From IMG/VR virus record IMGVR_UViG_3300027038_000027: a stretch of DNA of 33,275 bases; one strand, 5' to 3'. The position numbers and the translations under genes were made by a program. This DNA is from a virus. Positions 1 through 25,513 of this stretch are shown piece by piece; within the stretch, counting starts at the first letter, position 1; every line of letters begins with the position of its first letter. Below the pieces are notes generated by a model. That model saw nothing but the letters and a program-made list of their open reading frames with translations, was not told the DNA's origin and ran no database searches.

Positions 1-1
1 T

Positions 2-1261: not shown

Positions 1262-1263
1262 TC

Positions 1264-3311: not shown

Positions 3312-3314
3312 ATC

Positions 3315-3719: not shown

Positions 3720-3723
3720 AGAC

Positions 3724-9612: not shown

Positions 9613-9617
9613 CACTT

Positions 9618-9914: not shown

Positions 9915-9931
9915 AAGCAAGGAACGAAATA

Positions 9932-10912: not shown

Positions 10913-10913
10913 T

Positions 10914-11123
10914 GTGCTTGATAAAAAACTTCTTAAACAAACAATTAAACATCTTGACGAAGAAGCAACAGTCGCATTTGAGTTATCTAAACGCTGGGTG
11001 GCTGAAATGGAGAGACTTCAATCTGGAGAACGATATATTCCTGAACCAAATGACTATTGGCGAGCAACCAAAATCACAACAGCAGCTAATGCTCTAAAGC
11101 ATATCCTGAAATGGGCAAAATGA
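10914..11123 (+). CDS. small hypothetical protein
   Basis: A GTG lies 2 nt after the upstream TAA, in the frame of listed ORF 10806..11123. Its TGA overlaps the ATG at 11120 (ATGA), which suggests coupling to the next gene. The competing listed ORF 10912..11097 is in another frame. Confidence 0.3.
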   Translation: MLDKKLLKQTIKHLDEEATVAFELSKRWVAEMERLQSGERYIPEPNDYWRATKITTAANALKHILKWAK

Positions 11124-11605
11124 CAGATCTTATTTGGCATATCAATGATCGAGTTATTCCGGCAGCTCTGGATCTGTTACCCGGAAGAATGAATTCGCTC
11201 GAAGCACGAGCTATGCTTTTGGCGATTGGTCTCCAGGAATCTAAATTCCAGCATCGTCGCCAAGTGAATGGTCCTGCGCACAGTTTTTGGCAATTTGAAC
11301 AAGCAGGAGGTGTGGCTGGTGTATTGTCTCATCCAATGACTGCATCTATCATCACACCAATTTGTGATTTTCTTCTTTATCCAACGACGACTCTTGCATG
11401 CTATACTGCTATCGAGCATAATGACGTCTTGGCTGCGTGTTTTGCTCGTCTCTTATTGTGGACAGATTCCCGACCATTACCATTAAGACATCAGGAAGAG
11501 AGTGGTTGGCAAATCTATTATGCACAATGGCGACCAGGAAAACCACATCCACAAACTTGGCATTCAGCATTTGTTAATGCTTGGCAAATTGTTAGTGGTA
11601 CATAA
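11111..11605 (+). CDS. putative lysozyme-like / lytic transglycosylase-like protein; endolysin candidate
   Basis: LAIGLQESKFQ...GPAHSFWQFE resembles the ES..F catalytic region of GH23 lytic transglycosylases, but the GLMQ/AYN motifs are not clear. ATG 11120 is an alternative start. Confidence 0.35.
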   Translation: MGKMTDLIWHINDRVIPAALDLLPGRMNSLEARAMLLAIGLQESKFQHRRQVNGPAHSFWQFEQAGGVAGVLSHPMTASIITPICDFLLYPTTTLACYTAIEHNDVLAACFARLLLWTDSRPLPLRHQEESGWQIYYAQWRPGKPHPQTWHSAFVNAWQIVSGT

Positions 11606-11998
11606 ATGCTATTCCTTCTTTTAACTTTGGTGCTTAACAAAGATCTAACACCAGGTATGACACGATCACTAACTGTAGAAACTGTGTGTTCAACGAAATG
11701 GGGATTAGATCGTCGTTTTGTCACTATCGCAATGAAACGGCATGTAGCTGCAGCTTATGGTGTGCCTTGGATAGATCGTATTTGTTGTGAATTTGATCAT
11801 CTTATTCCACGATCATTGGGTGGAGCTGATAATATTCTAAATCTGTGGCCTCAGCCTTGGCCTGAAGCAAAACAAAAAGATCATCTTGAAATCGTACTAG
11901 GGCAATTGGTTTGTGCTAAGAGACTATCTCTGAAAGAAGCACAGCATATGATTGTAAAAGATTGGCATAGTGCGTATCTAAAATATGTAAAACCATGA
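11606..11998 (+). CDS. HNH endonuclease
   Basis: CCEFDHLIPRSLGGADNILNLWPQ is an HNH core (DH...GG...N). ATG 11657 (MTRSL...) is a possible alternative start. Confidence 0.6.
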   Translation: MLFLLLTLVLNKDLTPGMTRSLTVETVCSTKWGLDRRFVTIAMKRHVAAAYGVPWIDRICCEFDHLIPRSLGGADNILNLWPQPWPEAKQKDHLEIVLGQLVCAKRLSLKEAQHMIVKDWHSAYLKYVKP

Positions 11999-13371
11999 AT
12001 ATTCCTATACTTGGATCATTTACATTTCCAGCTCCGTATAATACACGTGGGATTCGTCTTACAAATCGGAGTAATGCTCCAAATGGGTGTGCTCCACGAC
12101 ATTATTCGTATTATTCTGTTGTAAACAACCATCAAAATCAAGATCATCTCTTTGTTGTTATTGGACGAAATAGTGCTCCACCTCTTTTCATAAAAGTACA
12201 TAAAGAAAGTGGCCAAATTATTGAACAATGGTCACCAGAATGGGCAAGAGGAGAAGCTGAAGGTTGGTATTTTAGTGATAAGAAACCTCGTGGTCTTTAT
12301 CTAGTGATGGATTCTCGATTAATGTGCTATGACGTAGTCTCCAAAGAAATGGAAACCATTTTCTCGCTTGATCCTAGATATGGAGCATCGATCTGGCAAG
12401 CTCATTCGAGTGCAGACGATAAAGTTCATTCAGCCACAGTGCGTGATACAGCTTATCAGGATGCGGGTTTTGTTGTGTATCGTCAAGATCAACAGTATCC
12501 ATTTGGACTTCGTAATGGCTATGATGAATGCCAAATTGATAAAAGCGGCCGATATCTTGTTGTTAAAGCGGGTCTTGAACCGCCTGGCGGTGATAATATT
12601 ATCATTGATCTTGATACTGGCGATGAGTATACTATTCTTGATCGTGACGGCGCTGTTGGTCATTCAGATTGTGGCAATTGCATTTTGATTGGTGAGGATG
12701 ATTCTTCCGACCGATGGCAAATGGTGCTATGGGATCTTAGAGCTCCATCGAGTTCTCACCAAAAATTGCTTAGAGGTGGCTCTACGTGGGGCAATGGAAT
12801 GGGTCATAATGCCGTACGTGGAAATCGTGTCCTTGTTAGCAATGAAAATGGTCTCATTATTGTTTCGACTGATGGCTCACAAAAGGAGACTCCTGTTGCA
12901 CCAAGTTTAATGTGTCCACCAACATCGCCTCTTAATCCGTATGATTGGCAAGTGAGAGCTAGCTGGGACCCAATAGCAGAATATGCTTGTTGGTTGGCTA
13001 ATTGTGACGGCAGTCATCGTCTTGATGCATTTCTTGTCCAGACAACCATCTCCTCACCACAAATCCTTGTCGTAAATCCACCAAAACCAGGAGGCTCTAT
13101 GCAATCACTAGCGATTTCCACTGATGGATCATTTAAAGAAGTGAAATTGAAACATGACAGTGGATATGAAGCAGTTGGTGTGCCCGGTATGTTTGATGAT
13201 CGGCCTGCATATCTTATACCATTATCTGACTCATTAATAGATGGACATGGGGCAGAACTGACATTAGTGTGGGATGACGGAATAACACTAGTGCAACATG
13301 GATTTCTAAATATCAAGAGTAATCCACCAAGATTTTCTCCAAATATTTTCACGAAACCAACAGGTTTTTAG
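11995..13371 (+). CDS. hypothetical protein, possible beta-propeller fold (glycan-binding/depolymerase candidate)
   Basis: 458 aa with repeated DG/GxxxxD-containing strand-like segments. It ends in a T5 run at a TAG stop, immediately before an open frame leading into the next gene. Confidence 0.4.
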   Translation: MNIPILGSFTFPAPYNTRGIRLTNRSNAPNGCAPRHYSYYSVVNNHQNQDHLFVVIGRNSAPPLFIKVHKESGQIIEQWSPEWARGEAEGWYFSDKKPRGLYLVMDSRLMCYDVVSKEMETIFSLDPRYGASIWQAHSSADDKVHSATVRDTAYQDAGFVVYRQDQQYPFGLRNGYDECQIDKSGRYLVVKAGLEPPGGDNIIIDLDTGDEYTILDRDGAVGHSDCGNCILIGEDDSSDRWQMVLWDLRAPSSSHQKLLRGGSTWGNGMGHNAVRGNRVLVSNENGLIIVSTDGSQKETPVAPSLMCPPTSPLNPYDWQVRASWDPIAEYACWLANCDGSHRLDAFLVQTTISSPQILVVNPPKPGGSMQSLAISTDGSFKEVKLKHDSGYEAVGVPGMFDDRPAYLIPLSDSLIDGHGAELTLVWDDGITLVQHGFLNIKSNPPRFSPNIFTKPTGF

Positions 13372-13457
13372 GAAGCCGTCGGGAAGGAATTGTCCGCGCA
13401 GACGGCCGCGGATTCAAAGACAATACAGGGCGATTTTTCCCTCTAGGCGCAACTCTT

Positions 13458-14588
13458 ATGTGGGCTCTTCGTGGTGCGAAATACGAGCCAGAACGAGTTG
13501 AAGCACAGTGGGCTTTTCTCCAAAAACATCGATGGAACTATTATCGAGTGTTTGGAGATGTTGCGTGGGCGCCAGAGTTGGAGACAAATGGTGATTGGCC
13601 AGATTTTCAAACTCTTCTCGCTTGGATGGTGGATACTGGTTATGACAAATATGGCCAAAGATGCCAATTGACTGTTAGTGGGGGTTCAAAACGAAATCTT
13701 CTTCGAATAACAGATCAAGTTCTTGAAGTGATCAAAGGTCGTGAACATAAATTCATGTATCTGGAACCATCCAATGAAGGAAATGTCAGTAAAGATGTAG
13801 TCATCCAGATGGTTAAGAAACTTATGACTTCTGGTTTACTCGTTGCTCCTGGCTTTGGAAATGATTATGGCGGCATCATGAAAGAACTGATGCTAGCTCA
13901 TATTGGCAATATGGTTTCTCCCCATTTAGCTCGAACTGCGAGCGATTTTGATTGGCGATTCGTTCGTCAAACATGGGATGTAAGAGACTATAAAGTTCCA
14001 ACATCACAGGGAGAACCCAAAGGACCACTTTCGAGTGTGTCGTGGTGTAGTGATCCATTACGACTTGCAATGGCACGAGCTGTTGGGATCTTAAATGGTG
14101 CTGGCAGTTATTGTCTGCATAACGGTGCTGGTGTGTATGGCGTGGAAAAATCATTTGCAGGAGGAGTTCGTCCGCCAAATATTTGGGAGACACCAGATAT
14201 AGATAATATCATGACAGCAATTCGTGGTATTGATACATTAATGCCAATTGGTGTAGAAGATTGGGTTCGTGCCAACGATGCGTGGACTGTTCCTGCTCAT
14301 CCACTTCGTTCACAACATTTTTGGGAGGGTAAGTCTGGTTATGGCGTAAACAAGAATTACTCAGCCAGTTTCGGAGCCTCATTTGTGACGGCTCCGTGTG
14401 GCGTCATGAGCCAAGAAGGCAAAGACCCATATGTTACAGCACGAAATGCTTGTCGCGTCGTGGTTTCTGATCCATTGAATCCTGGCACACCGATTGAAAT
14501 CAAAGACTTGGGCGCAGGAGAGGAGTTGGTACTGAAAGGTACGCCGAACGCGCAAACAGCGTACATAATCAATGGAATCAGATTGTAA
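13458..14588 (+). CDS. putative TIM-barrel glycoside-hydrolase-like protein (clan GH-A-like NE motif)
   Basis: YLEPSNEGN resembles the NEP acid/base motif. The frame is open upstream from 13323 and encodes GIVRADGRGFKDNTGRFFPLGATL, which looks like a GH N-terminus, but there is no canonical start before ATG 13458. Confidence 0.35.
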   Translation: MWALRGAKYEPERVEAQWAFLQKHRWNYYRVFGDVAWAPELETNGDWPDFQTLLAWMVDTGYDKYGQRCQLTVSGGSKRNLLRITDQVLEVIKGREHKFMYLEPSNEGNVSKDVVIQMVKKLMTSGLLVAPGFGNDYGGIMKELMLAHIGNMVSPHLARTASDFDWRFVRQTWDVRDYKVPTSQGEPKGPLSSVSWCSDPLRLAMARAVGILNGAGSYCLHNGAGVYGVEKSFAGGVRPPNIWETPDIDNIMTAIRGIDTLMPIGVEDWVRANDAWTVPAHPLRSQHFWEGKSGYGVNKNYSASFGASFVTAPCGVMSQEGKDPYVTARNACRVVVSDPLNPGTPIEIKDLGAGEELVLKGTPNAQTAYIINGIRL

Positions 14589-14610
14589 ACAAAGAGACGG
14601 AAGGAATAGA

Positions 14611-15075
14611 ATGAAATCTCTCATCCGAATGATTTTGATCTTTCACGCAGTAATCTGGTTATCAGCTTGTGCTGGTAACAAAGCTCCTGTTCTTGTTGGC
14701 CAAATTGGTTTAGCAACGTCGCAGTCAATTGAAAGAGTGTCCGAAGGTTCTCGTCAATTGCGCGAAGCTGGTAATATGCCAGCTACTGTTGACGTGAATG
14801 TACAAGGAGCATTGAAAGCAATTAATGCCAAATTAGAGCCTCTTCCTGAAATCCTGCGGTCGATTGACAGACTGCAAATTGCTAACGACTCTACAGCAAC
14901 ACTAACAAATCGAGCGATTGCGATTCTGGAAGAAGTAGGACAAGATGTTTCGGTCGTAATCGCTGGTGTTCCTGTTGGCCAGGCAACTCAGAAACTCCTC
15001 GAATTGGTTCGTGCGGCTCAAAAGGCAATTCAGACTACGATGATTGAAGTCGCGAAAATTCAAGGAGCACAGTAA
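14611..15075 (+). CDS. lipoprotein (signal peptide with LSAC lipobox, helical mature part)
   Basis: AAGGAA Shine-Dalgarno sequence 4 nt before ATG 14611. MKSLIRMILIFHAVIWLSAC is a signal peptide with a canonical L-S-A-C lipobox. The listed ORF starts earlier at 14572. Confidence 0.5.
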   Translation: MKSLIRMILIFHAVIWLSACAGNKAPVLVGQIGLATSQSIERVSEGSRQLREAGNMPATVDVNVQGALKAINAKLEPLPEILRSIDRLQIANDSTATLTNRAIAILEEVGQDVSVVIAGVPVGQATQKLLELVRAAQKAIQTTMIEVAKIQGAQ

Positions 15076-15323
15076 TGGAAAAGATCGATAAATTGAATAG
15101 TTCAATTGAGGGAATCACACAGTTGATGTTGTCAGCCAATATCGCTGTACCCATAATTGCTGGAACAATTGGAGCAATTGTGATGATTATCAAGAGTCAT
15201 ATTGGAAAAGGTCCGTCTCTGCCGGAACTTGCCAACACTCTTGAAGCCCAGATCAAGAAGACTGGTGTGACAGTGAGTGAAAATGAGGCAGCTGCAATCA
15301 AAGCCGCTCTTGGCGTGGTGTAA
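15075..15323 (+). CDS. small single-TM membrane protein (holin- or i-spanin-like)
   Basis: TAATG overlap with the lipoprotein gene. One TM segment ANIAVPIIAGTIGAIVMII and a charged helical C-terminus. Last gene of the plus-strand block. Confidence 0.45.
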   Translation: MEKIDKLNSSIEGITQLMLSANIAVPIIAGTIGAIVMIIKSHIGKGPSLPELANTLEAQIKKTGVTVSENEAAAIKAALGVV

Positions 15324-15426
15324 ACTTCAGCCTGCTTCTTGCGGGAAGAAGTAGGTCAGGTGCTGTGTGGTCCCGAGCAGCGAAGAAATCGGGGCAATTA
15401 TTCACGAAATCCTAGCATTCCTCTTG

Positions 15427-15753
15427 CTATTCTCTCTGCGACGTTCGCGACAAACTTTGCGTCCTCGTCTCCGCCAGATCAGTTGCAAGAGTCCAGGCTG
15501 GTTGTAGTTCACCAATAGAATTGAATCCTTCTGCGACAACAATTTTCCAGAATCGAGCTGGTAAACGATTCTCGTAGACTTCTACTGACTGACCATCACC
15601 ACCAATACTTTTTGAGTATCGTGCCACTAGAAAATGTGTACCATAGACAAATTTCTCTGGACCAATCCAAGCATCACCAAATGGTGCCCGATTCTTAGCA
15701 GTCACAAGCCAAATTTCTGGAAATAAATCATCTATGATGGAGTGATCACTCAT
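15427..15753 (-). CDS. hypothetical protein
   Basis: ATG 15753 forms an ATGA overlap with the stop of the upstream membrane-protein gene, and MSDHSIIDDLFPE... follows. The longer listed start at 15846 overlaps the upstream gene. Confidence 0.4.
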   Translation of the reverse strand: MSDHSIIDDLFPEIWLVTAKNRAPFGDAWIGPEKFVYGTHFLVARYSKSIGGDGQSVEVYENRLPARFWKIVVAEGFNSIGELQPAWTLATDLAETRTQSLSRTSQRE

Positions 15754-16022
15754 TTCATTATCCATGGCATTGCTGCTACAACAATAAACCAAACGACCCA
15801 GACAAATGCTCCAACTACTGCCAATACAGTGACAGTGGTCTGCCACGGATCATCAGTCTGTGCTGTTATACTAAAAAGAACAACACTAACGATGATCATT
15901 GCTAACAGCCAAATCTTAGCGAACACTCTTGTCATTGCAAAATTCGTCTGGAAGATACGTGATTGAAATCCCTCGATACCCGTAATACTGTTCAAATCTG
16001 AGAATACCAAAACAGGCGCCAT
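15750..16022 (-). CDS. small membrane protein (2 predicted TM helices)
   Basis: KIWLLAMIIVSVVLFSI and VLAVVGAFVWVVWFIVVAAM. Internal start MTRVF at 15935 is possible. Confidence 0.4.
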   Translation of the reverse strand: MAPVLVFSDLNSITGIEGFQSRIFQTNFAMTRVFAKIWLLAMIIVSVVLFSITAQTDDPWQTTVTVLAVVGAFVWVVWFIVVAAMPWIMK

Positions 16023-16143
16023 TCTTATGACGGATAAATCTCATGCTATTGATGTCGTTTCTTGCTTGATCAATAGTTGGTTGTATGGGTCCACCACAAC
16101 TACTCGCCAAGAGACAAGCGATTAACAGAAGTATCTTCTTCAT
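15916..16143 (-). CDS. putative lipoprotein; superinfection-exclusion candidate
   Basis: MKKILLLIACLLASSCGG is a signal peptide with a lipobox-like ASSC. First gene downstream of a promoter/operator. Confidence 0.45.
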   Translation of the reverse strand: MKKILLLIACLLASSCGGPIQPTIDQARNDINSMRFIRHKNGACFGILRFEQYYGYRGISITYLPDEFCNDKSVR

Positions 16144-16175
16144 GTTGCTCCGGAGCCGTTTTCTCTAACCACGAA

Positions 16176-16205
16176 TATCTACATCGTCGACATTCTCGAT
16201 GTAAA
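16176..16205 (-). promoter_or_regulatory. sigma70-like promoter (-35 TTTACA, 18-nt spacer, -10 TAGATA) with an embedded inverted-repeat operator
   Basis: On the minus strand: TTTACA tcgagaatgtcgacgatg TAGATA. The perfect 7-bp inverted repeat TACATCG-N10-CGATGTA (plus 16180..16203) spans the spacer. GGAG lies before ATG 16143. Confidence 0.35.
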
Positions 16206-16377
16206 TGTGGAATTGATGCATCACTTTGAGTTCGTATATTGATATTCATCAAGATGTACTTTTATACAAAATGTAGTTGTCACATGAAGAGTTACGTGGA
16301 TATATGAACACATGGGACAACGTATGCCTGTACTAGTCCTGTATGAGTCGAAATCGAGTAATTTCATAGCAATTTGT

Positions 16378-16770
16378 CTACGAGAGACTATATGTTGCCG
16401 TCTTACCCTTGCCTTGGTGAGAAAGAAGACCATTCTTCACCGCGAGCTTTAGAATATGGTGAACGCCGCTAACCGATTTGAAGCCCATTTTTTTCCCAAT
16501 TTCCCGAGCACTCATTGGGTCTGAGCTTTTAAGAAGTTCACGAACCTGATCGATTCGTTCATTCTTCTTGAACGACTTACTCTTCTTGCGTTTTTTGTAT
16601 TTCTTGTGTGGCGTAACAACAGCGACAGTCGATTCGAAATCAGCAGCGTGTCCATTCTGCGTGAGCATGAACTTGCGGAGATGTGCAATGAGCATCCCCG
16701 TATTTGCTTGTCGCGCTTCGAGTTGTGAGATCAACGAAGTCACTTGCACTCCAACATCTTTCTTCGCCAT
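16378..16770 (-). CDS. winged-helix DNA-binding regulator (N-terminal coiled coil, basic linker, C-terminal wHTH)
   Basis: MSAREIGKKMGFKSVSGVHHILKLAVKNGLL is MarR/wHTH-like. The gene sits directly upstream of the operator-bearing intergenic region. Confidence 0.45.
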   Translation of the reverse strand: MAKKDVGVQVTSLISQLEARQANTGMLIAHLRKFMLTQNGHAADFESTVAVVTPHKKYKKRKKSKSFKKNERIDQVRELLKSSDPMSAREIGKKMGFKSVSGVHHILKLAVKNGLLSHQGKGKTATYSLS

Positions 16771-16797
16771 TCTAGTCCTCCCATACGACGTTATCTG

Positions 16798-17091
16798 TTA
16801 ACAATCGTTTACTTGTAGCTGACTTGCGTTTGTCCTATCCACCCACTCTTTGAAATCTGACATGAAATGTTCAGAAAGTGGTTCTCGACCAAATCCTGTC
16901 AAGATTACCGCACCACATCCTGGACATACCCATCTGTCCCCTACCCATACTTTGTATGGTTCCCATTTCTCTGGTTCAGCAAGACCAGGTTCTGGATTTC
17001 GTTCACCTGGTTTTGGCATTGCTTCAATGAAATAAAATCCAGATTTAGTCATCCTGAAGAAACGTTGACATGGCACGCAGACGGGTTTCAT
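16798..17091 (-). CDS. zinc-ribbon protein, hypothetical
   Basis: CVPC...CPGC pairs; ATGA overlap with the upstream gene. Confidence 0.4.
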   Translation of the reverse strand: MKPVCVPCQRFFRMTKSGFYFIEAMPKPGERNPEPGLAEPEKWEPYKVWVGDRWVCPGCGAVILTGFGREPLSEHFMSDFKEWVDRTNASQLQVNDC

Positions 17092-17342
17092 CGCTTGTCG
17101 ATGACCTGAGTAAGCCCGATGATTTGGTGTTCGAGAGTTTTCTTGAGAGCTTGCGCTTGTGCAATTCGAGCCGCAAGCGCCGACACTTCTGCGTCAATGA
17201 CAGTAATCTGATACGACAACAATCGACGTTGCCGGAGAATCGAGTCGGTGTCAAGATGAGCGAAATCCTGACTTGTGGTGATTACGACGACATCACCCTT
17301 TTTGATTGGAGCAACGACTTTTAGAGCCTCCTTCTTTTTCAT
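17088..17342 (-). CDS. hypothetical coiled-coil protein
   Basis: ATGA overlaps on both sides. Confidence 0.4.
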   Translation of the reverse strand: MKKKEALKVVAPIKKGDVVVITTSQDFAHLDTDSILRQRRLLSYQITVIDAEVSALAARIAQAQALKKTLEHQIIGLTQVIDKR

Positions 17343-17650
17343 AACTCCTCTTTCTGAAGCCGTTTGACTTCGATTGTTTGTATTTGAACAGTACGATTTC
17401 CATCAAGACGTATGCGCGCGAATGTGCCGTCTGTTTGTATAATCACACCATATTCTTTATGTCCTTTCTCTCCTTTTCGTCTCGCCCAATACCACACGCG
17501 ATCACCGCGCTTCACGAGAGCCACTTCGTGTATGCTCGTTAATCCAAGCCTTGACATCCACGTCCAAGACCAATTTCTTTCGGTCACACCCACGATTCGC
17601 AATAAAGGACCATTTGAAATCTTGGTGAAAGTGAAGTGCTTGCTGGTCAC
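17339..17650 (-). CDS. small DUF1918-like (SH3/Tudor-like GDRVW motif) protein
   Basis: GDRVWYWARRKGEKGHKEYGVIIQTDGTFARIRLDG. The true start is possibly ATG 17557, because of overlap with the upstream gene. Confidence 0.35.
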   Translation of the reverse strand: MTSKHFTFTKISNGPLLRIVGVTERNWSWTWMSRLGLTSIHEVALVKRGDRVWYWARRKGEKGHKEYGVIIQTDGTFARIRLDGNRTVQIQTIEVKRLQKEEL

Positions 17651-17834
17651 TCAATCCTGCTTCGAGGAGAATGGCCAAAGCAAGCTGCGCAGGACCGCTA
17701 CCACCATAGCCCCACGAAAATCCATCAGGACTATGATTGTAAACTTTGAGAGATCTTTCTGGTGAAATCATTCGTCCGTCGATACGAACTGCGCCATACC
17801 AAGTCTTATCATTCCATTCACCCTCAATTTTCAT
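17502..17834 (-). CDS. conserved hypothetical protein (HSPDGFSWGYGGSGPAQLALAIL motif)
   Basis: Non-random, globular-looking sequence; family not recognised. Confidence 0.4.
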   Translation of the reverse strand: MKIEGEWNDKTWYGAVRIDGRMISPERSLKVYNHSPDGFSWGYGGSGPAQLALAILLEAGLSDQQALHFHQDFKWSFIANRGCDRKKLVLDVDVKAWINEHTRSGSREAR

Positions 17835-17842
17835 GTCGCCTC

Positions 17843-18100
17843 CTATGGTTTTGCTGATGAATCGTATTCTATGGTTCCAGGATGAGAACGTTGATACATC
17901 TGAAGGTCATTCGATGCTTGCGATTCTGACATACCAAATTTGCGTATTAGGTGTTCTCGATTAATAAATCCGAACACGCGCAGTGCCTCGGCAATCCATT
18001 CCATACGATGTTTCTGATACCAATTCCCAGCAACTTTAGACATCGGGTTCAAATCCATGTTTCTTTTGCAAATCTGGAACATGCCAACATGGCTTGCCAT
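17843..18100 (-). CDS. small HTH-domain protein
   Basis: FGFINREHLIRKFGMSESQASNDLQMY is HTH-like. ATG 18043 is an alternative start lying 4 nt after the stop of the upstream primase-polymerase gene. Confidence 0.35.
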   Translation of the reverse strand: MASHVGMFQICKRNMDLNPMSKVAGNWYQKHRMEWIAEALRVFGFINREHLIRKFGMSESQASNDLQMYQRSHPGTIEYDSSAKP

Positions 18101-18794
18101 TCCTCATCCGGTATTTCCAACCCGGACAAGAACACGAACCTTTGCCTGTTTCACGATGAACTTTCGTGGTGTAGGCGTTCTTCACACCTTTGCTACTATC
18201 GTACAACTCGATAAAGAAATCTTCCGGATTCGGTTTGTCTTTCTTTGGGCGTTTCTCGTTAAAAAGAACACCATCGAGTCGTTTGTGGAGATATGCTAGC
18301 TGCTCGGAACGCTCTTCAATAGTGTTAATAGTCCCAAGCAATTTTCCGGTGACAGTGAAATAACGTCCTTCTGAGTAGATTTCTACGAAGCCAAGTTTGC
18401 GCCATCCGTCGGGAAGTTTGGCCTTCACGAGAATATGAACACCAGCTCCTGATGGACTCGCTTCAGTGTATGATGAAATCTCATCAATGATTCTTTGCGC
18501 TTCTTGTTTCTTAGCGCCAGTAATGGGATCGCGGCATTTGTCAAGATCGATGCCACAAAATCCTTCGCCGAGAACGAATCCGATTCCATGTGCATGGCCA
18601 TCACGAAATGTTGAAAGTGCTTGACTGAAATGAGCCCAAGTGGCAGGATTAGTGCTGCTGGCCATCCTCTCAGGATTTTCTGCTTGGATGGGAATCTTGG
18701 TAGGATTGTCGCCACGAGTATCGAGGCGCCAACAAACCCAACGAGGCATTTCACGTAGCTCGCGTGGGATGTTGAGTATCTCAAGATCGTTCAT
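18036..18794 (-). CDS. primase-polymerase (archaeo-eukaryotic primase family, Prim-Pol N-terminal domain) fused to a C-terminal SWIM zinc finger
   Basis: AEP motifs GIDLDKC (DxD), SPSGAGVHILV (SGxGxH) and EIYSEGRYFTVTG. The C-terminus SCSCPGWKYRMRNGKPCWHV matches the CxCx(n)CxH pattern. Confidence 0.65.
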   Translation of the reverse strand: MNDLEILNIPRELREMPRWVCWRLDTRGDNPTKIPIQAENPERMASSTNPATWAHFSQALSTFRDGHAHGIGFVLGEGFCGIDLDKCRDPITGAKKQEAQRIIDEISSYTEASPSGAGVHILVKAKLPDGWRKLGFVEIYSEGRYFTVTGKLLGTINTIEERSEQLAYLHKRLDGVLFNEKRPKKDKPNPEDFFIELYDSSKGVKNAYTTKVHRETGKGSCSCPGWKYRMRNGKPCWHVPDLQKKHGFEPDV

Positions 18795-19024
18795 TTGGTT
18801 ACTTTCTCTGGCGGAAAAACAACTCCTTCACCATACTTCCACTCCCATGCTATGGAATCACCACCATCAGTGATGATCACTCGAACAGTCGTTCCGATTC
18901 GTCCACCAACACTAGTCGCAAGTTGAACAGCCCGATGAAGCGCAGTTGCCGCAGACACGAAATGTTCCGCTTCTTCGTACTGACCATCAGGAAAGAATTG
19001 ATAGACGGAGAATTCGTTTGCCAT
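18791..19024 (-). CDS. hypothetical protein
   Basis: ORF with a stop/start overlap to the primase-polymerase gene. Confidence 0.35.
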   Translation of the reverse strand: MANEFSVYQFFPDGQYEEAEHFVSAATALHRAVQLATSVGGRIGTTVRVIITDGGDSIAWEWKYGEGVVFPPEKVTK

Positions 19025-19221
19025 TATTTGATCTTCACCCAGGAATCACCAATGAGCATCACAATTGGTTCAATTTCACCCTTTGGTGTCATTGGAACCC
19101 ACCAAGGATTGTGCATTCCATAACAAGGAGTTCCTACGAAATGCCGATCTTCTCGCTGGACAAGACATCGATGATGAGGTTCTGGCCAACCTAATTGGTC
19201 AGTAATTTTGGTGAATCTCAC
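19024..19221 (-). CDS. hypothetical protein
   Basis: Short ORF packed between neighbouring genes. Confidence 0.3.
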   Translation of the reverse strand: MRFTKITDQLGWPEPHHRCLVQREDRHFVGTPCYGMHNPWWVPMTPKGEIEPIVMLIGDSWVKIK

Positions 19222-20291
19222 AACACTTCACCAATGATATGGTCTGCCATGGGATGCCTGTATCTACCCGTATTCGTTTTCTGCTGATAGTTAATTCGGA
19301 TTTCTTTGCCAATGAATCGAGTTGATTCAGTGGCAAACACACGACGCCACTCATCGTTGAGCGTCTTGACTTGGACTTCAACACCAAATTCATCGACGCA
19401 TGAGATCTTTGAATGTGGACCTAACAGACCAGCCACAAATCCGACGATCTTACAGATAACGAATTGTTCTTTCTTGATCTTGATCCATGAACGAGAACGG
19501 TGATCTTCCTCATAGAGAGCTTTAAGATCCTTGATAATCGCTCCCTCACCACCAGCATCCCAAATCCTCTGAAGAGCTAATTCAGACACTTCGAATTGAT
19601 CGGCGAGACGAATAGCACCAGGCGAAATCAGTGACGCGCCTTCTTCGAGCAAATCTCGACGAGCGGCGGTCGTTTCACCAAGCGCAGAATTCGGACCAAC
19701 ACGAAGCATATCGAAAAGAATTAGTTCAGATTTGTGAAGAAGATCAATGGACGTAACATCGGTTGACGTGCCACCAGGAATACACAATTCTCCATCGTAG
19801 ATTCCAGGCGCAAGATGAGCAGCAACTTCACGGATATGATTACCAAGAATGCGCACATTCCCCGCCCGCGACCACGCGGTGATTTCTGCTCCTACTTCGA
19901 GGATGATACGATGTCCATCATATTTGACTTCGAGGATGTGATCAGCGTCGACGTAGTCGTCGAGAACCCATCCCTCTTTGAGACCAGATGCCAACATCGG
20001 ACGAACAGGAATTTCTGGAGAAGCACCAAGCAGGGAAGGCTGAGCAGGAGCGCCACTACCACCAACGATTTTGAGATTTGGCGTTGATGAAAAGCGACCA
20101 ACAATTGGAGGAAGAGCTATTACGCCAGGACCACCACGGACTAATTCGTCGCCAGCCGCTTTGATGTGCCAGCATTTATCGGGAGTACGAAATCCTCGAC
20201 ATGTACAGACGAGACGTCCATCATCGTGAAGAGTGACGACGTGTGGTTTTCCATTCGGATTGGATTTGGACGGGTAACTCCACGTTCTCAT
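19218..20291 (-). CDS. lig: ATP-dependent DNA ligase with N-terminal SWIM zinc finger
   Basis: Motif I EVKYDGHRI (KxDGxR), DGEL, EGAIIKD and WIKIKK (motif VI). The N-terminus LVCTCRGFRTPDKCWH matches the SWIM CxCx(n)CxH pattern. Confidence 0.7.
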   Translation of the reverse strand: MRTWSYPSKSNPNGKPHVVTLHDDGRLVCTCRGFRTPDKCWHIKAAGDELVRGGPGVIALPPIVGRFSSTPNLKIVGGSGAPAQPSLLGASPEIPVRPMLASGLKEGWVLDDYVDADHILEVKYDGHRIILEVGAEITAWSRAGNVRILGNHIREVAAHLAPGIYDGELCIPGGTSTDVTSIDLLHKSELILFDMLRVGPNSALGETTAARRDLLEEGASLISPGAIRLADQFEVSELALQRIWDAGGEGAIIKDLKALYEEDHRSRSWIKIKKEQFVICKIVGFVAGLLGPHSKISCVDEFGVEVQVKTLNDEWRRVFATESTRFIGKEIRINYQQKTNTGRYRHPMADHIIGEVL

Positions 20292-20298
20292 TAGAGCT

Positions 20299-20327
20299 AG
20301 TATACTTTATTAGCCGGTAAATGTAAA
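20299..20327 (-). promoter_or_regulatory. promoter: -35 TTTACA, 17-nt spacer, -10 TATACT, 7 nt upstream of the ligase ATG (implies a leaderless mRNA)
   Basis: On the minus strand: cTTTACAtttaccggctaataaagTATACTagctctaATG. The same motif recurs at 21952..21980 and 25023..25051. Confidence 0.45.
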
Positions 20328-20334
20328 CAGAAAG

Positions 20335-20571
20335 CTATCGTCGCCGCCTTCTTTTCTTTGCTGAAATCATTGCGTCCGCAAATTGGTAGGCGATGTCAGC
20401 AATCTCTCGTACATTCTTGCCTTTTCCAATTTCTCGAACGATTCCACACAGAGCTTGTCCGGCGAAATAATCCCTGAGTTCAAACAATCGATCTTTTACC
20501 AGTTCTTTCTTTACCTTCGCCATGGTTGTCTCGCTCGTTGACGTTCGTTGTGAATTTCGTCGGCAAAACAC
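20335..20571 (-). CDS. hypothetical protein
   Basis: ORF; ATG 20523 (MAKVKK...) is the likelier start. Confidence 0.3.
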   Translation of the reverse strand: MFCRRNSQRTSTSETTMAKVKKELVKDRLFELRDYFAGQALCGIVREIGKGKNVREIADIAYQFADAMISAKKRRRRR

Positions 20572-20699
20572 CGCACCATCCGATGAAAATCCTCGAGAAC
20601 ATCGTCCGGCGCATTTCTCATAAATCGTTCGAGCTTGTCGTAACGACCAGGAATTTCTCTCGAGATCATGCCAAATGCGTGCCGAAATAATTGGGACAT
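20511..20699 (-). CDS. hypothetical protein
   Basis: ATG 20699 lies 2 nt after the upstream stop; the listed longer start overlaps the upstream gene. Confidence 0.3.
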   Translation of the reverse strand: MSQLFRHAFGMISREIPGRYDKLERFMRNAPDDVLEDFHRMVRCFADEIHNERQRARQPWRR

Positions 20700-20700
20700 G

Positions 20701-21045
20701 TTATTGTGAGCTCGTAAGGCCGAGGTCTCGTTCAATCTGATCGATCCGAGCATTAAGTCGAGAAGCTTTTGACTCATCTAACCCACTATCTAATTGTTCG
20801 CGAAGTTCCGCACGCTCCACCATCAACTCAGCGCGCTCGAGGTCCTGCGCATAAGCTTCATCAGCTTCGCACTCCAATCGATTTCGTTCTTCTGCTTCAG
20901 CCTGAAATTCTTGTTTCAGGTTGCCATCGTCGTCGATATGATCACAGCCATTGTCGGCCCACTCACCACAGATTGGGCATTTCCAATTCCCTTGTGCTGG
21001 ACCACAGGACGGACATTGAGTATCACCACAAAGACATGGTCCCAT
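20701..21045 (-). CDS. Cys-rich zinc-ribbon plus acidic coiled-coil protein
   Basis: CLCGDTQCPSCG...CPICGEWADNGC followed by a Glu/Asp-rich helix. Confidence 0.4.
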   Translation of the reverse strand: MGPCLCGDTQCPSCGPAQGNWKCPICGEWADNGCDHIDDDGNLKQEFQAEAEERNRLECEADEAYAQDLERAELMVERAELREQLDSGLDESKASRLNARIDQIERDLGLTSSQ

Positions 21046-21047
21046 AG

Positions 21048-21287
21048 TTACCTCTTTTCCAAAGCAGTGTCTATAATCTCAAGAAAATCTACACACCATA
21101 GAGCAGTGACTCCTACCACCTCCCACACTATGTGCTCTTGTTCAGGTTCAAAGCCAAATTCGTCCATGAACGATTTCTTTGCCATCATCATCGCAGTTCG
21201 TAAATCTTGATGGCGAGCTTGTCCATAACGTGTGCCATGTGGACGATAGACTTTTACATGGTCGTATTTTGTTTTGATGACCGGCAT
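21048..21287 (-). CDS. hypothetical protein
   Basis: ATG 21287 (MPVIKTK) forms a TGATG overlap with the upstream small ORF. The listed ORF uses GTG at 21290. Confidence 0.35.
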   Translation of the reverse strand: MPVIKTKYDHVKVYRPHGTRYGQARHQDLRTAMMMAKKSFMDEFGFEPEQEHIVWEVVGVTALWCVDFLEIIDTALEKR

Positions 21288-21454
21288 CACAATTCCACAG
21301 CTTCCACTCGAACACTGATGATTCCGTAATGGTCATTATCTGGTGTTTCGAGTGCATTCTCGACGGCAAGTTTGCAATCTTCTACGCTTGGAGGTTCTAC
21401 ACGAGGACGTTGATCATCAATGGTAATTCTTGCTGTGATTATGATGACTTTCAT
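21287..21454 (-). CDS. small hypothetical protein (55 aa)
   Basis: Not in the ORF track because it is under 60 aa. Its ATG 21454 forms an ATGA overlap with the stop of 21451..21702, and its stop overlaps the next start. Confidence 0.3.
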   Translation of the reverse strand: MKVIIITARITIDDQRPRVEPPSVEDCKLAVENALETPDNDHYGIISVRVEAVEL

Positions 21455-21702
21455 GGATGCAACCGTACAAATTCTCGAAACATTACCTGTTCTTCAGGCG
21501 TGAGAAAGTTTGTGATGAATTCTTCCTGAGTTGGTCCAACATAGGTTTTACATTGACAAGGAATCTTTTCTTGCCATGTTCCACACGTTGGACACTGTCC
21601 TCTAGTGATTTCATCACAACCATTGTTATCGTGCGCTTGCGCGACGTGCCTACAGTTTGCACAACGTGGCCATACATCACCAAGTTGACTCATGCTTCTC
21701 AT
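21451..21702 (-). CDS. zinc-finger protein
   Basis: CANC...CPTC...CQC; ATGA overlap with the upstream gene. Confidence 0.4.
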   Translation of the reverse strand: MRSMSQLGDVWPRCANCRHVAQAHDNNGCDEITRGQCPTCGTWQEKIPCQCKTYVGPTQEEFITNFLTPEEQVMFREFVRLHP

Positions 21703-21944
21703 AAATCCTTAATCTTCGGATGTTCCACTCTGGTATGTTCACGAACCCAGTAGGCTTTGCGGCATTCATCACAGCAATTACGACCACCAAATGGGTAGTG
21801 ATTATCGTGTTGCCGTAATTCGTCAGATCGTGGACATTCAAGTCCATGAGGACATTTATGTCTATATGTACGCCGACCATGACGAGGTAACTTCAGTGTC
21901 GGAGTTTGACACCAATCGCAGTAATTTCCAAGCCGCTTACCCAT
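21699..21944 (-). CDS. zinc-finger protein, possibly a mini HNH-like nuclease
   Basis: CDWC ... HGLEC ... HDNHYPFGGRN ... CCDEC (CxxC-H-N-H-CxxC arrangement). The ATG lies 7 nt downstream of a TATACT -10 box. Confidence 0.35.
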   Translation of the reverse strand: MGKRLGNYCDWCQTPTLKLPRHGRRTYRHKCPHGLECPRSDELRQHDNHYPFGGRNCCDECRKAYWVREHTRVEHPKIKDL

Positions 21945-21951
21945 TACAACT

Positions 21952-21980
21952 AGTATACGCTAAACGGGCGAAAATGTAAA
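21952..21980 (-). promoter_or_regulatory. promoter: -35 TTTACA, 17-nt spacer, -10 TATACT, 7 nt upstream of ATG 21944 (implies a leaderless mRNA)
   Basis: On the minus strand: cTTTACAttttcgcccgtttagcgTATACTagttgtaATG. Confidence 0.45.
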
Positions 21981-21997
21981 GAGAAAACGATCACGAT

Positions 21998-22288
21998 TTA
22001 AAATGGTATGTCATCATCTGGGATAGGTGCCGCAGTTTGTTCTACAACTTGTTGTTCTATGGCTTCTTGTTGTTTTCCACAAGCATCTATAAATCCATCA
22101 CCAATATTCTGAAAATTCATGGCGTCTTCTTTTGAAATCCAGACAACGATTTCTACATATCCGCCATCTGCCATTGGTTGTACATGTGCTGTATGTGGAA
22201 CCTTCACACCATATCGCTGTGCAGCCACTGTCCGATAGTTATCGCGAAGTTTGTGTAATTCAGCTCGTACCTTTTCTCGTTCATTCAT
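21998..22288 (-). CDS. small helical protein ending in the SSB C-terminal tip motif (…PIPDDDIPF)
   Basis: The last 6 residues, DDDIPF, are identical to the C-terminal hexapeptide of E. coli-type SSB. The rest of the 96 aa has no OB-fold-like sequence. Confidence 0.5.
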   Translation of the reverse strand: MNEREKVRAELHKLRDNYRTVAAQRYGVKVPHTAHVQPMADGGYVEIVVWISKEDAMNFQNIGDGFIDACGKQQEAIEQQVVEQTAAPIPDDDIPF

Positions 22289-22451
22289 GATCTAGCTCAT
22301 TGATCTTTACATCGATGTTTGTCTCAATAATCCTGTATGGAATGTGTAGTGCTAGAAATTGATTTGTTTGAAGAGCTTTTCGGATGTACTCAACTGTTAA
22401 CGATTTGCCACCACCTTGTGGTCCACTCACAATTATCTTTATCACGATCAT
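22281..22451 (-). CDS. 56-aa ORF with an N-terminal Walker A (IIVSGPQGGGKS); probable truncated kinase/ATPase remnant
   Basis: Its ATG 22451 forms an ATGA overlap with the upstream stop. The P-loop is seen directly; the ORF is too short for an NTPase and has no Walker B. Confidence 0.3.
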   Translation of the reverse strand: MIVIKIIVSGPQGGGKSLTVEYIRKALQTNQFLALHIPYRIIETNIDVKINELDHE

Positions 22452-22828
22452 CCTCCAAGATATTGCAACGTCAGTGCCAATGTTATGTAGTGAATGAATT
22501 GATCAAATCCGACACTCACGAAAAACCAATGTACTTGCTTCTCTTGCCAGAGTCGTGTGTTAATGCGGCTCGTTATGGCATCAGTCACGAAATGTGTGAC
22601 AAATGTCACACAAAACCACGAAATGTATCGCGTGATAAACCAAGGTGTAGGAGAAAACAAAAAGACCCAATTGATAACACCAACGAGTACTGTGGTGTAT
22701 ACTGAAACATGCATCAATAGTGCTCTCCAGTTCTTTGATTTGTTTTGGGCCATCCAATCTGTTTGACAAACGAAATCCGCAAACCAATGCGCCAGCATAA
22801 TCCAAACTGGAAGCTGTAAATCATTCAT
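22448..22828 (-). CDS. integral membrane protein (about 4 TM helices)
   Basis: Hydrophobic segments, e.g. VYTTVLVGVINWVFLF and FFVSVGFDQFIHYITLALTL. Confidence 0.45.
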   Translation of the reverse strand: MNDLQLPVWIMLAHWFADFVCQTDWMAQNKSKNWRALLMHVSVYTTVLVGVINWVFLFSPTPWFITRYISWFCVTFVTHFVTDAITSRINTRLWQEKQVHWFFVSVGFDQFIHYITLALTLQYLGG

Positions 22829-23051
22829 GTTGTGTTATCTATCATTTTGGCACAGAAAATTGCTATTCGTGCTGTCTGTTTATAGTGAAATCGAGCATCT
22901 TGTTCTATATTATCGACATAGATGACATACCAAATCTTCATCTTGAGACCCCAGGAGTCTATCTTGCCGGCTTACGGCCTAGGCTCCGTCCGTTGAAAAA
23001 CGAAATACTCTTGTTCGCGCCTATCAATGACTTCTAATATTGTCTCCATGA

Positions 23052-23234
23052 TTATCCGTTCTTGGCGACGTGAATCGCCATCTTGGTGTAACGTTCCCAG
23101 TATTCTGGAAATGCTTCTTTGATCCGTTTGATATTCTCTGAGTCAGCGTATTTGCACGCCTCTCCAAGAGCTCGGACAAACGATCCACCAAATCGGATCA
23201 TCATTTCGACAGGTGCGCGATCTTCTTCGTTCAT
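23052..23234 (-). CDS. hypothetical protein
   Basis: Short ORF followed by a 223-nt AT-rich intergenic region. Confidence 0.3.
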   Translation of the reverse strand: MNEEDRAPVEMMIRFGGSFVRALGEACKYADSENIKRIKEAFPEYWERYTKMAIHVAKNG

Positions 23235-23242
23235 GCTAACTC

Positions 23243-23530
23243 CTACGCAAACATTTCAAGTCCGTCCTCTTCAATACGCACACCACATCGAACCAAATCT
23301 TGTATTTGTTCAATTGTAATGACTTTCGCCAGTTCTTCAAGCGAAGGTTGTAAGAAAATCTTATCGTGTTCAGCACCCGAAACGATATCTCTCGAACTAG
23401 GAACCAATCGATCAAGTAGTAAGAATGCGTGAAGATCCTTGCGTGGGCTAAGTTGCCGTTCTAACGGAACTGGTTCAAGAAAGAGAGACTCATTCTCTTC
23501 AAATTCTGTGATCATTTCATGCTCAGTCAT
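23243..23530 (-). CDS. hypothetical acidic protein
   Basis: ATG 23530 forms an ATGA overlap with the upstream stop. The longer listed start (23593) overlaps the upstream gene. Confidence 0.35.
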   Translation of the reverse strand: MTEHEMITEFEENESLFLEPVPLERQLSPRKDLHAFLLLDRLVPSSRDIVSGAEHDKIFLQPSLEELAKVITIEQIQDLVRCGVRIEEDGLEMFA

Positions 23531-23871
23531 GATGCATCCACCTTTAATGCCATCAATGGTAACCATCCAGCTGGCTCTGGGTCCACCACCCACACGACAT
23601 CGAGGTCAACACTTTTCCCAGTATCAGCGTTTTTCATCACACATGACCTGATACGATCAAGATCGATGCGATAACGCTTTCCTGTTGGCACATCATCGCC
23701 CAGAATTGGCCATCCTGGCTCAACTTCACGACGAACGAAAGTTGCTCCGACTATTGACATTGTACCTTTGCGAGAAGTGATTCTCGTATCACACTGAAAA
23801 CAAATGTTAATGGTTGGTTGATCGTTGACAAAAAGACAGCCGCAGATAGGACAGACAAGCCATTTCGCCAT
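23527..23871 (-). CDS. Cys-containing hypothetical protein (CPICGC...CFQC)
   Basis: ATG 23871 is preceded by a strong GGAGGAGGAG Shine-Dalgarno sequence. The upstream part of the listed ORF (to 23928) covers the intergenic hairpin. Confidence 0.35.
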   Translation of the reverse strand: MAKWLVCPICGCLFVNDQPTINICFQCDTRITSRKGTMSIVGATFVRREVEPGWPILGDDVPTGKRYRIDLDRIRSCVMKNADTGKSVDLDVVWVVDPEPAGWLPLMALKVDAS

Positions 23872-23888
23872 ACTCCTCCTCCAGCTGC

Positions 23889-23911
23889 CGGGCACCCAAT
23901 TGGTGCCCGGC
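23889..23911 (-). promoter_or_regulatory. GC-rich perfect hairpin (9-bp stem CCGGGCACC / GGTGCCCGG, 5-nt loop) in the 5' region of gene 23527..23871
   Basis: Seen directly. It lies between the DUF932 stop (23938) and the Shine-Dalgarno sequence/ATG at 23871. No U-tract follows on the minus strand. Confidence 0.35.
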
Positions 23912-23937
23912 CATACGATGGGGACCAACCACCGTTG

Positions 23938-24909
23938 CTACGCCGCGAACTGCGTCGCGAGCAAGAGTGCCTTTTGTTTCAGCTTCGCGTTTTTGCCAAA
24001 CACAGCACTCTTGTTAGCCGAACGGATACTCTTGGTGTTGTGCGCCTCTGCGGGGCGGACATGGTCTACGTATTCAGTAATCGCATTGAAAGCTGTCCAA
24101 GATGTACCCGGAGCAAATTCGGTCCCCTTCCCCGATTCAGACAGTTCGAGGATCTTCTCGAAACGACGCGCGACGACTGGGTTTTCCATTTCCAAATCGT
24201 CTTCATCCTCGATACCAAGCACTTCAGCGATGTAGGCACGAACTTCGTCGTGATCCATTCGCTTCGCTGCCAGTTTTGCGAACGTTTCGCCGGATTGTTT
24301 CAGCGACGCTACCAGATTGGTTACCAAATCGGTAACCATTTTCATCTGATTTGCGACACCGGAAACGTGCCGCAGTTCGATGATTTCCTTGCTTCTGAGC
24401 GCCAACGCGATGGTATTGGCGCATACAGCACGCACTGGTGTCGGTCGAGCGGTGAAGCGGGTCTTGCCATTGTGACCGGTCATGACAAGGAAGTAGCCAT
24501 CGACGTGATCGCCGGCCACCACTTCGATTCGTTCGGGGAGCTTCGCAAGCATCCAACATTTGTCCCCAGTCCCAAGCGCTCCGGCTGTTTCAATCGTAAC
24601 ACCGAACTGTTCGCAGGCAGGTTGAAGAACACCAAATGCCTCATGATTCTGAAGCACGTGGTATTTGTCGCCGACGGTGTGAAGGATTTTGTGATCGACG
24701 TCGCGAACAGTGGCTTTTCGACGACTCACTTTGGTTCCGTCAGCAAGGAACAAGTCCTCGATCGAGACCAACCAGTCAAGGTGAGCCGCTTTGAGAGCAG
24801 CCGGAACATCCGGATTACCCTCCATTTTGGTGCCAAGCGCGTGCCAAGGAGTCTCTCCCTGATACGCCATTGTAGCTTGACCCATGAGTTCCGAGATCTC
24901 GTGGCTCAT
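23938..24909 (-). CDS. DUF932 / phage-plasmid-like protein (TIGR03299-like)
   Basis: MGQATMAYQGETPWHALGTKM... is typical of this family. ATG 24909 has a GGAGAAAGG Shine-Dalgarno sequence; the listed ORF start 24951 is a TTG. Confidence 0.55.
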   Translation of the reverse strand: MSHEISELMGQATMAYQGETPWHALGTKMEGNPDVPAALKAAHLDWLVSIEDLFLADGTKVSRRKATVRDVDHKILHTVGDKYHVLQNHEAFGVLQPACEQFGVTIETAGALGTGDKCWMLAKLPERIEVVAGDHVDGYFLVMTGHNGKTRFTARPTPVRAVCANTIALALRSKEIIELRHVSGVANQMKMVTDLVTNLVASLKQSGETFAKLAAKRMDHDEVRAYIAEVLGIEDEDDLEMENPVVARRFEKILELSESGKGTEFAPGTSWTAFNAITEYVDHVRPAEAHNTKSIRSANKSAVFGKNAKLKQKALLLATQFAA

Positions 24910-25022
24910 ATCTAACCTTTCTCCGTATGCTTCCTCCCGCAACAAGGACAAACGGAATATCCTCGCGGAATGCGCGCTACACAGATTTGACAGACAAGAA
25001 GTAAGCGCCTATTCATAACTAA

Positions 25023-25051
25023 AGTATACTATTCCCCAGCCCGTTTGTAAA
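25023..25051 (-). promoter_or_regulatory. promoter: -35 TTTACA, 17-nt spacer, -10 TATACT upstream of the DUF932 gene
   Basis: On the minus strand: cTTTACAaacgggctggggaatagTATACTtt, about 107 nt upstream of ATG 24909. Confidence 0.4.
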
Positions 25052-25084
25052 GTAGTTCCGCTCAACAACTTTTGTTGAAATCTT

Positions 25085-25513
25085 CTATCTTGCTTTCCAG
25101 TTCTCCCAATACGTGCGAATCATCCAATCTTGCACCGCTTCTTCATTTGGTTCTGCAGGAATTGGAGATGTATTGATGAGATCTTTGAGTGATCGTTCTA
25201 GATTTCCTGCCATTGTGAGTACAGCATCAAGTTCTATGCGCCCATAGCGCACATCCATGAGAAATTCTCGTGTACCTTCAACCATTGGTAGGACCAGACG
25301 ACCAGTCTGCATTAGCTCTACACCTTGAAATCCTAAACGAAGCATGTGCATTGCATACTTAGTGTCGTATCCATGCTTTGCCTCAAGCTCAGGACGGTGT
25401 ACTTTCTTTTGTCCTCGCTCGCCTAATAATCTTTGTCTCTGTGCTTCCATGTAACCAAGAAATCTTTTTCCAGCATAGCGACTGATAACGCGGTTGTTGG
25501 TTCTACAGCACAC
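25085..25513 (-). pseudogene. C-terminal half of a Pol-beta-superfamily nucleotidyltransferase (KYAMHMLRLGFQG region); the N-terminal half is on the opposite strand
   Basis: HGYDTKYAMHMLRLGFQGVELMQTGRLVLP matches the C-terminal helical domain of YcgL/RlaP-like nucleotidyltransferases (family name recalled, not searched). No N-terminal nucleotidyltransferase core lies upstream on this strand. Confidence 0.45.

Follow-up and report, generated by a model that had tools for sequence, protein, structure and literature searches.

IMG/VR virus record IMGVR_UViG_3300027038_000027, an uncultivated tailed phage with a phage-like genome layout, carries three copies of a promoter-like element, TTTACA-N17-TATACT, in the minus-strand arm of its genome, each separated by 6-7 nucleotides (nt) from the ATG of the gene that follows. 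The hexamers, their 17-nt spacing and the intergenic orientation of the copies support their assignment as putative sigma-70-type promoters. Transcription from them would probably begin at the AUG or 1 nt before it, so that the first genes of three operons, which encode an ATP-dependent DNA ligase and two small zinc-binding proteins, are predicted to be translated from leaderless messages. The stretch of DNA analyzed here (the window) comprises 33,275 nt, which is 98% of a contig of 33,926 bp derived from a sediment/groundwater metagenome (ENA ERZ936689).

An exact search of the window returned three matches to TTTACA-N17-TATACT, all on the minus strand and all at positions already reported in an earlier, sequence-only reading of this DNA:

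20299..20327, minus strand: promoter copy 1, with the -35 box TTTACA at 20327..20322, a 17-nt spacer and the -10 box TATACT at 20304..20299
21952..21980, minus strand: promoter copy 2, TTTACA-N17-TATACT within a 53-nt intergenic gap
25023..25051, minus strand: promoter copy 3, TTTACA-N17-TATACT, starting 27 nt past the TGA (25070..25068) that ends the upstream nucleotidyltransferase open reading frame (ORF)

By chance, 0.01 such matches would be expected, and in 100 dinucleotide-preserving shuffles the count never reached three. Across all 33 kb of the window, the minus strand contains five TATACT hexamers, three of which are the promoter copies. The search for additional copies suggested in the sequence-only reading found no exact match beyond these three; in a relaxed scan (up to two mismatches, spacer of 16-18 nt), the only further close intergenic copy was TTTACA-N17-TAGAAT at 32517..32489. 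The intergenic gaps that contain the three copies measure 43-68 nt, and all copies are on the strand that is coding in this minus-strand gene arm; copy 1 occupies the 43-nt gap that separates the ligase ATG from the upstream stop codon.

When aligned, the three copies have in common only the two hexamers, a few flanking bases and a G before the -10 box; the flank TTTCTnTTTACATTT is common to copies 1 and 2. The 17-nt spacers are unrelated between the copies (copies 1 and 2 are identical at 5 of 14 positions after a common TTT), which rules out a repeat or a duplicated segment as the origin of the three copies. Conservation of the hexamers combined with unrelated spacers implies functional constraint and suggests that a protein recognizes two blocks at a fixed distance, as in a sigma-70-type promoter. 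As in the canonical TTGACA-N17-TATAAT, the spacer is 17 nt long, and each hexamer matches the sigma-70 consensus in five of six positions, with A2 and T6 of the -10 box retained; the consensus used here is of the E. coli type. The off-consensus positions are the same in all three copies, G3 to T in the -35 box and A5 to C in the -10 box. A generic consensus scan of the minus-strand arm placed the three copies among the six best sites (10/12 matches), all six of which are on the coding strand. No further recurrent motif was found in the intergenic regions of the early arm.

In sigma-70 promoters, the -10 hexamer spans positions -12 to -7, hence the seventh base after the hexamer is +1. In copy 1, 7 nt (agctcta) separate the -10 box from the ligase ATG at 20291 (sequence TATACTagctctaATG), and in copy 2, 7 nt (agttgta) separate it from the ATG at 21944 (TATACTagttgtaATG), both exactly as quoted in the sequence-only reading; in copy 3, the ATG at 25016 follows after 6 nt (ttagtt; TATACTttagttATG). 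Accordingly, the seventh base past the hexamer is the A of the ATG in copy 3 and the A immediately preceding the ATG in copies 1 and 2, where the eighth base is the A of the ATG. This spacing predicts a 5' untranslated region of 0-1 nt for all three copies. It also matches the distance of 6-8 nt between the Pribnow box and the start of leaderless first-in-operon genes reported with GeneMarkS-2 (PMC6028130).

Copy 3 had previously been assigned a leader of about 107 nt extending to the DUF932 gene. The distance to the DUF932 ATG at 24909 is indeed about 107 nt, but this segment is not an untranslated leader, since the ATG located 6 nt past the -10 box opens a 34-codon ORF; all three copies therefore share one architecture. 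A structured-RNA leader in these 107 nt is likewise unsupported (folding z-score of -1.6, no Rfam match).

The genes that follow the three promoter copies are:

19218..20291, minus strand: ATP-dependent DNA ligase of 357 amino acids (aa), with an N-terminal SWIM-like CxC..CxH motif
21699..21944, minus strand: Cys/His-rich protein of 81 aa, whose gene heads an operon (21944..20701) encoding small Cys-rich proteins
24912..25016, minus strand: 34-codon ORF MNRRLLLVCQICVARIPRGYSVCPCCGRKHTEKG, encoding a single zinc-ribbon unit, with the stop codon 2 nt before the DUF932 ATG at 24909
23938..24909, minus strand: DUF932 protein of 323 aa, the second gene of the putative copy-3 transcript

The leaderless assignment depends on the validity of the three start codons. 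The ligase gene heads an operon of tightly overlapping genes (20291..18036) that further encodes proteins of 65 aa and 77 aa and a primase-like protein of 252 aa. We identified 66 homologs of the ligase, mostly with 34-57% identity at 96-100% coverage, along with about a dozen shorter proteins at 61-80% coverage. Nine of ten close homologs start at the same residue, with the pattern M-K/R-x-F/W-x-F/Y-P-S-x-S in which S8 and S10 are invariant, and the SWIM-like zinc finger at residues 29-42 (C29, C31, C40 and H42; window positions 20166-20207) is invariant in the alignments as well. Given that the conservation begins at residue 1 and the next Met is only at residue 99, the ATG at 20291 is the start of the ligase. 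The primase-like protein (18036-18794) shows a C-terminal SWIM match.

The 81-aa ORF has two homologs with 71-76% identity and is, therefore, a real gene. Its frame contains a TAG 18 nt upstream of the ATG at 21944, with no ATG, GTG or TTG in between, and the conserved CDWC begins at residue 9. Because the frame is closed upstream and offers no alternative start before CDWC, this ATG is the sole possible start. An N-terminal likeness of the 81-aa protein to the sequence upstream of its homolog in one contig (L018) proved spurious. Small Cys-rich ORFs are unusually numerous in the early arm (for example, 21702..21451, 21045..20701 and 17091..16798).

The 34-aa peptide was compared with 1.84 billion representative proteins, resulting in 10 matches with E-values up to 1e-3 (best 3e-6). 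The four of these that we inspected (P0189, P0190, P0191 and P0196) contain repeated zinc-ribbon units of the form CxxCxxxlPxGxxxCPxCG, and the peptide also gives a sub-threshold match to the Pfam family DZR_2. Judging by this pattern, the 34-aa ORF looks like a genuine one-unit zinc-ribbon protein, with support for the start weaker than for the ligase and the 81-aa protein. In the closest relative of the DUF932 protein (P0070, 77% identity), a 71-aa gene overlaps the DUF932 start; in two other contigs (L022 and L015), the regions upstream of DUF932 differ from that in the window.

None of the three ATGs is preceded by a Shine-Dalgarno sequence: the 13 nt before each consist of the -10 box and the 6-7 nt that follow it, with no GGAG-like run. 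Other genes in the minus-strand arm, for example, ku and those starting at 26181, 23234, 17834, 17342 and 16770, have clear Shine-Dalgarno sequences (GGAGG/AAGGAG), so that the phage apparently mixes Shine-Dalgarno-led and leaderless starts. The first 50 nt of the predicted ligase and 81-aa messages are no more structured than shuffled sequences (z-scores of +0.3 and +0.8, respectively).

We then asked whether the same layout occurs in the contigs that encode homologs of the ligase. An instance of the layout was defined as a promoter-like site with an ATG 6-7 nt past it that begins an ORF of 30 codons or more, and the counts were compared with those in 100 dinucleotide shuffles. The window contains three instances compared to 0.07 in the shuffles. 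Contig L014 (ligase 46% identical; from an 83-kb contig) contains five compared to 0.0, all of the form TTGACA/T-N17-18-(G/T/A)A..AT followed by 6-7 nt and ATG, and its promoter-like sites number nine compared to 1.1 expected. Contigs L008 and L012 have one instance each (0.06 and 0.01 expected); the maximum in the shuffles was also one, so that neither is significant alone. In L008, where the ligase is 57% identical, TTTACA-N17-TATAAT-agttgt-ATG opens a 55-aa Cys-rich ORF, the stop codon of which overlaps the ligase ATG. In L012, where the ligase is 45% identical, TTGACA-N17-TATATT-taagtc-ATG opens a Cys-rich ORF of 55 aa, with 12 nt between its end and the ligase, and a second site at position 280, TTGACG-N17-TACTAT-caacac-ATG, heads another operon. 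Nine sites align to cTTGACA-N17-(TGn)TATAAT-N6-ATG. To judge from these contigs, the layout is a recurrent and selected feature in part of this phage group, neither confined to a single contig nor universal among the ligase carriers.

The mechanism that we favor, with fairly good confidence, is initiation by the host primary sigma factor at the AUG or 1 nt before it, followed by leaderless translation of the first gene and expression of the downstream genes by coupling. The housekeeping (sigma-70-type) holoenzyme of the host would use three strong promoters heading three operons in the early, replication-repair arm. Transcription would start at the A of the AUG or at the A directly before it, and the ribosome with initiator tRNA would bind the 5'-terminal AUG of the resulting leaderless message. 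The later genes of each operon could then be reached via translational coupling, as suggested by the 4-nt (ATGA) overlaps or 2-nt gaps between the operon genes. The sequence-only reading had placed the start of transcription at the A of the AUG or beside it and had proposed leaderless messages for the ligase and zinc-finger operons; both the sequence and the comparative evidence support this proposal, in which we infer the polymerase that uses the sites, the exact transcription start and the route of translation.

Several observations weigh against this interpretation. In the generic sigma-70 scan of the region, promoter-like matches overall occur at the level expected by chance (26 compared to 26.8), so that only the top-scoring sites are informative. 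The layout is absent from contigs L010, L013, L015 and L022, which carry related ligase or DUF932 genes. A search of the 1.84 billion representative proteins found no full-length homolog of the 34-aa ORF, and the 5' end of the predicted copy-3 message is somewhat structured (z-score of -2.1). The interpretation further assumes the specificity of the host polymerase and the capacity of the host for leaderless translation, and it places the transcript starts at the three ATGs by promoter geometry. Finally, a terminator scan found no terminators upstream of the three sites, so that read-through transcripts, in which these ATGs are internal, probably also exist.

The last point bears on the possibility that, although the promoters are real, read-through transcripts are the main templates for translation of the genes, through either re-initiation or initiation that needs no Shine-Dalgarno sequence, with the short spacing being a by-product of gap packing. 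The early arm is indeed dense with overlapping genes, and in contigs L017 and L018, the homologs of the 81-aa gene lie inside operons, where each is coupled to the gene before it. However, gap packing leaves the 6-7 nt unexplained in all three copies and in eight sites in L008, L012 and L014; the 43-68 nt from the upstream stop codon is a long distance for re-initiation; and there is no Shine-Dalgarno sequence that would capture ribosomes internally. We therefore regard this possibility as unlikely, while allowing it some weight.

Recognition of the hexamer pair by a phage-encoded factor, such as an alternative sigma factor, a repressor or other operator-binding protein, or another DNA-binding protein, would account for the identical off-consensus TTTACA and TATACT in the three copies, which show no scatter around TTGACA and TATAAT. 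Furthermore, AGTATACT, which includes the -10 box, forms an 8-bp palindrome in copies 1 and 3, and the early arm encodes many small zinc-finger proteins as well as a candidate LexA-like winged-helix protein (16770..16378). The palindrome is lost in copy 2, however, and no sigma factor gene was detected among the scanned proteins. The near-consensus hexamers with optimal 17-nt spacing, together with the related contigs, in which the same layout includes TTGACA with TATAAT, TATATT or GATAAT and TGn extensions, have a housekeeping look, making a dedicated phage factor quite improbable. A chance coincidence of hexamers and nearby ATGs, which might be envisaged because short hexamer patterns are common and the generic scan stands at chance overall, is effectively refuted by the shuffle controls for both the exact 12-base-specified matches and the ATG spacing, by the uniformly intergenic, coding-strand location of the copies and by the replication of the layout in independent contigs, and its probability is negligible.

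Leaderless phage messages transcribed from sigma-70 promoters are classical. The cI gene of phage lambda is transcribed as a leaderless message from pRM (PMC10491246), and in phage PY54, the 5' ends of the cI and cro messages were mapped to the AUG by rapid amplification of cDNA ends, with strong promoters immediately upstream of the start codon (PMC4488713). The arrangement in the window, which we derive from sequence, is similar in that a sigma-70-type phage promoter abuts the first gene's AUG, which lacks a Shine-Dalgarno sequence. Whereas the leaderless genes of lambda and PY54 are immunity repressors of temperate phages, those identified here are the ligase and two small zinc-binding proteins heading multigene operons, and no repressor/operator switch or integrase was recognized in the window. 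The mechanism is thus already well known; what differs from the known cases is the genes involved, namely a ligase and small zinc-binding proteins, and not immunity repressors.

The layout also resembles the dual start model of the group C genomes of GeneMarkS-2, in which the -10 box is located close to where the first gene begins, whereas ribosome-binding sites precede internal genes and other operons; group C includes 90% of the Actinobacteria, 97% of Deinococcus-Thermus, 5.6% of the Proteobacteria and 3.4% of the Firmicutes genomes (PMC6028130). Unlike in group C, about three of the roughly dozen operon starts in the window are of the leaderless type. Typical actinobacterial promoters are high in GC, in contrast to the window, which has 40-56% GC and clear -35 hexamers.

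In a more far-reaching scheme, which we consider rather unlikely, the strongest early promoters would be systematically modular, with the promoter followed by a leaderless Cys-rich or zinc-ribbon mini-ORF and then by a coupled enzyme gene, as a deliberate expression strategy. Candidates for such mini-ORFs are, in the window, the 34-aa ORF that precedes DUF932 and, in L008 and L012, the 55-aa ORFs that overlap the ligase start and end 12 nt before the ligase, respectively. If this were the case, the module would load ribosomes with no need for Shine-Dalgarno recognition, as might occur while the host is shut off or its ribosomes are modified, and coupling would hand the ribosomes over from the mini-ORF to the enzyme gene. 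The scheme assumes that the host otherwise uses Shine-Dalgarno sequences.

The main practical value of these findings is in genome annotation, given that leaderless small genes in phage metagenomes are missed or mis-called. The source gene calls omit both the 81-aa gene and the 34-aa zinc-ribbon ORF, that is, two of the three leaderless first genes; in both cases, the promoter directly abuts the ATG and there is no ribosome-binding site. In place of the 81-aa gene, the source calls contain:

21791..21979 (L001 8313-8501), plus strand: spurious antisense ORF of 62 aa

A similar case was identified in L014, where, at one of the five sites, the plus strand of the region 8801-9850 contains a 289-aa ORF with the ATG 6 nt past TTGACA-N17-GATAAT and matches to PHROG families (E-value of 6e-20). 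The source instead called two minus-strand genes there, which have no matches, and these calls are probably an error caused by the leaderless start. Wherever leaderless starts occur, small zinc-finger genes heading phage operons are likely to be under-annotated. For the phage analyzed here, the three promoters and three operons provide a testable transcription map of the early arm of a groundwater/sediment phage without cultured relatives.

Apart from the three copies, the minus strand of the window contains the following promoter-like sites:

27231..27259, minus strand: TTTACT-N17-TACAAT, 5' of ku, with 33 nt from the -10 box to the ATG at 27197, including AAGGAG; leadered
32489..32517, minus strand: TTTACA-N17-TAGAAT, with 10/12 consensus matches, 18 nt before the ATG at 32470 and no Shine-Dalgarno sequence in between
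16176..16205, minus strand: TTTACA-N18-TAGATA, 5' of the lipoprotein gene (ATG at 16143), with a -10 box lacking the conserved final T

The first and third of these were also noted in the sequence-only reading. The site before ku is present as described and provides an internal contrast to the three copies, having an ordinary leader with a Shine-Dalgarno sequence. The site before the lipoprotein operon is present too, but it is a weak promoter candidate because TAGATA lacks the final T. The site at 32489..32517 is possibly another promoter, the leader of which would be very short (about 11 nt); an ORF of 6 codons begins 1 nt past its -10 box.

The window as a whole consists of two converging arms. 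The plus-strand structural arm (17..15323) encodes large proteins with TIG and PKD domains. The minus-strand arm (33127..15427) consists mostly of small, tightly overlapping genes and includes those for a major vault protein (MVP)-like protein, Ku, DUF932, DUF3307, the ATP-dependent DNA ligase and the primase-like protein. The junction of the two arms (15324-15426) contains a short hairpin, cttcttcccgcaagaag, which may be a bidirectional terminator, although the terminator scan did not call this region. No tRNA genes or Rfam matches were found in the window.

Contigs of other groundwater and sediment samples carry an identical ligase gene. A comparison with 50,697 deposited phage genomes found no close DNA relatives of this phage, and at the protein level, there are no close relatives among cultured phages, only distant matches with up to 32% identity to phages with hosts in several phyla, which gave no host call. 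Scans of IMG/VR with the ligase, the DUF932 protein and a 548-aa structural protein gave no matches, and a metagenome scan with the ligase gave one distant locus. A genome scan for a prophage or host with the single ligase protein found none, and a scan with the ligase alignment (A2) yielded only matches with 25-43% identity in metagenome-assembled genomes of Acidimicrobiia and Planctomycetota. Among the ligase-bearing contigs, L013 encodes an IS605 OrfB/TnpB (Cas12f-like) protein (1273-2370), and L015, a 138-kb contig, encodes NAMPT/NAPRTase, a protein kinase and adenylosuccinate synthetase (1-6106).

The nucleotidyltransferase upstream of copy 3 belongs to the RlaP family and is split across the two strands (25085-25819). 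The N-terminal half is on the plus strand (25436..25819; Pfam profile positions 25-97, E-value of 5e-14), and the C-terminal half is on the minus strand (25513..25085; profile positions 120-245; phrog_388, E-value of 5e-26). A 12-nt imperfect inverted repeat (25456-25467 and 25754-25765) exactly brackets the plus-strand homology, and re-inversion of the segment in silico places the halves on one strand, 1 nt out of frame. The gene could be decayed, the inversion could be real, or the split could be an artefact of assembly.

The MVP-like protein (825 aa; 27381-29858, minus strand) contains a major-vault-protein shoulder, a Vault_3 repeat and SPFH/Band 7 domains and is unusual as cargo of a 34-kb phage. 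Its sole match in IMG/VR is a homolog with 45% identity encoded on a 482-kb contig (L016).

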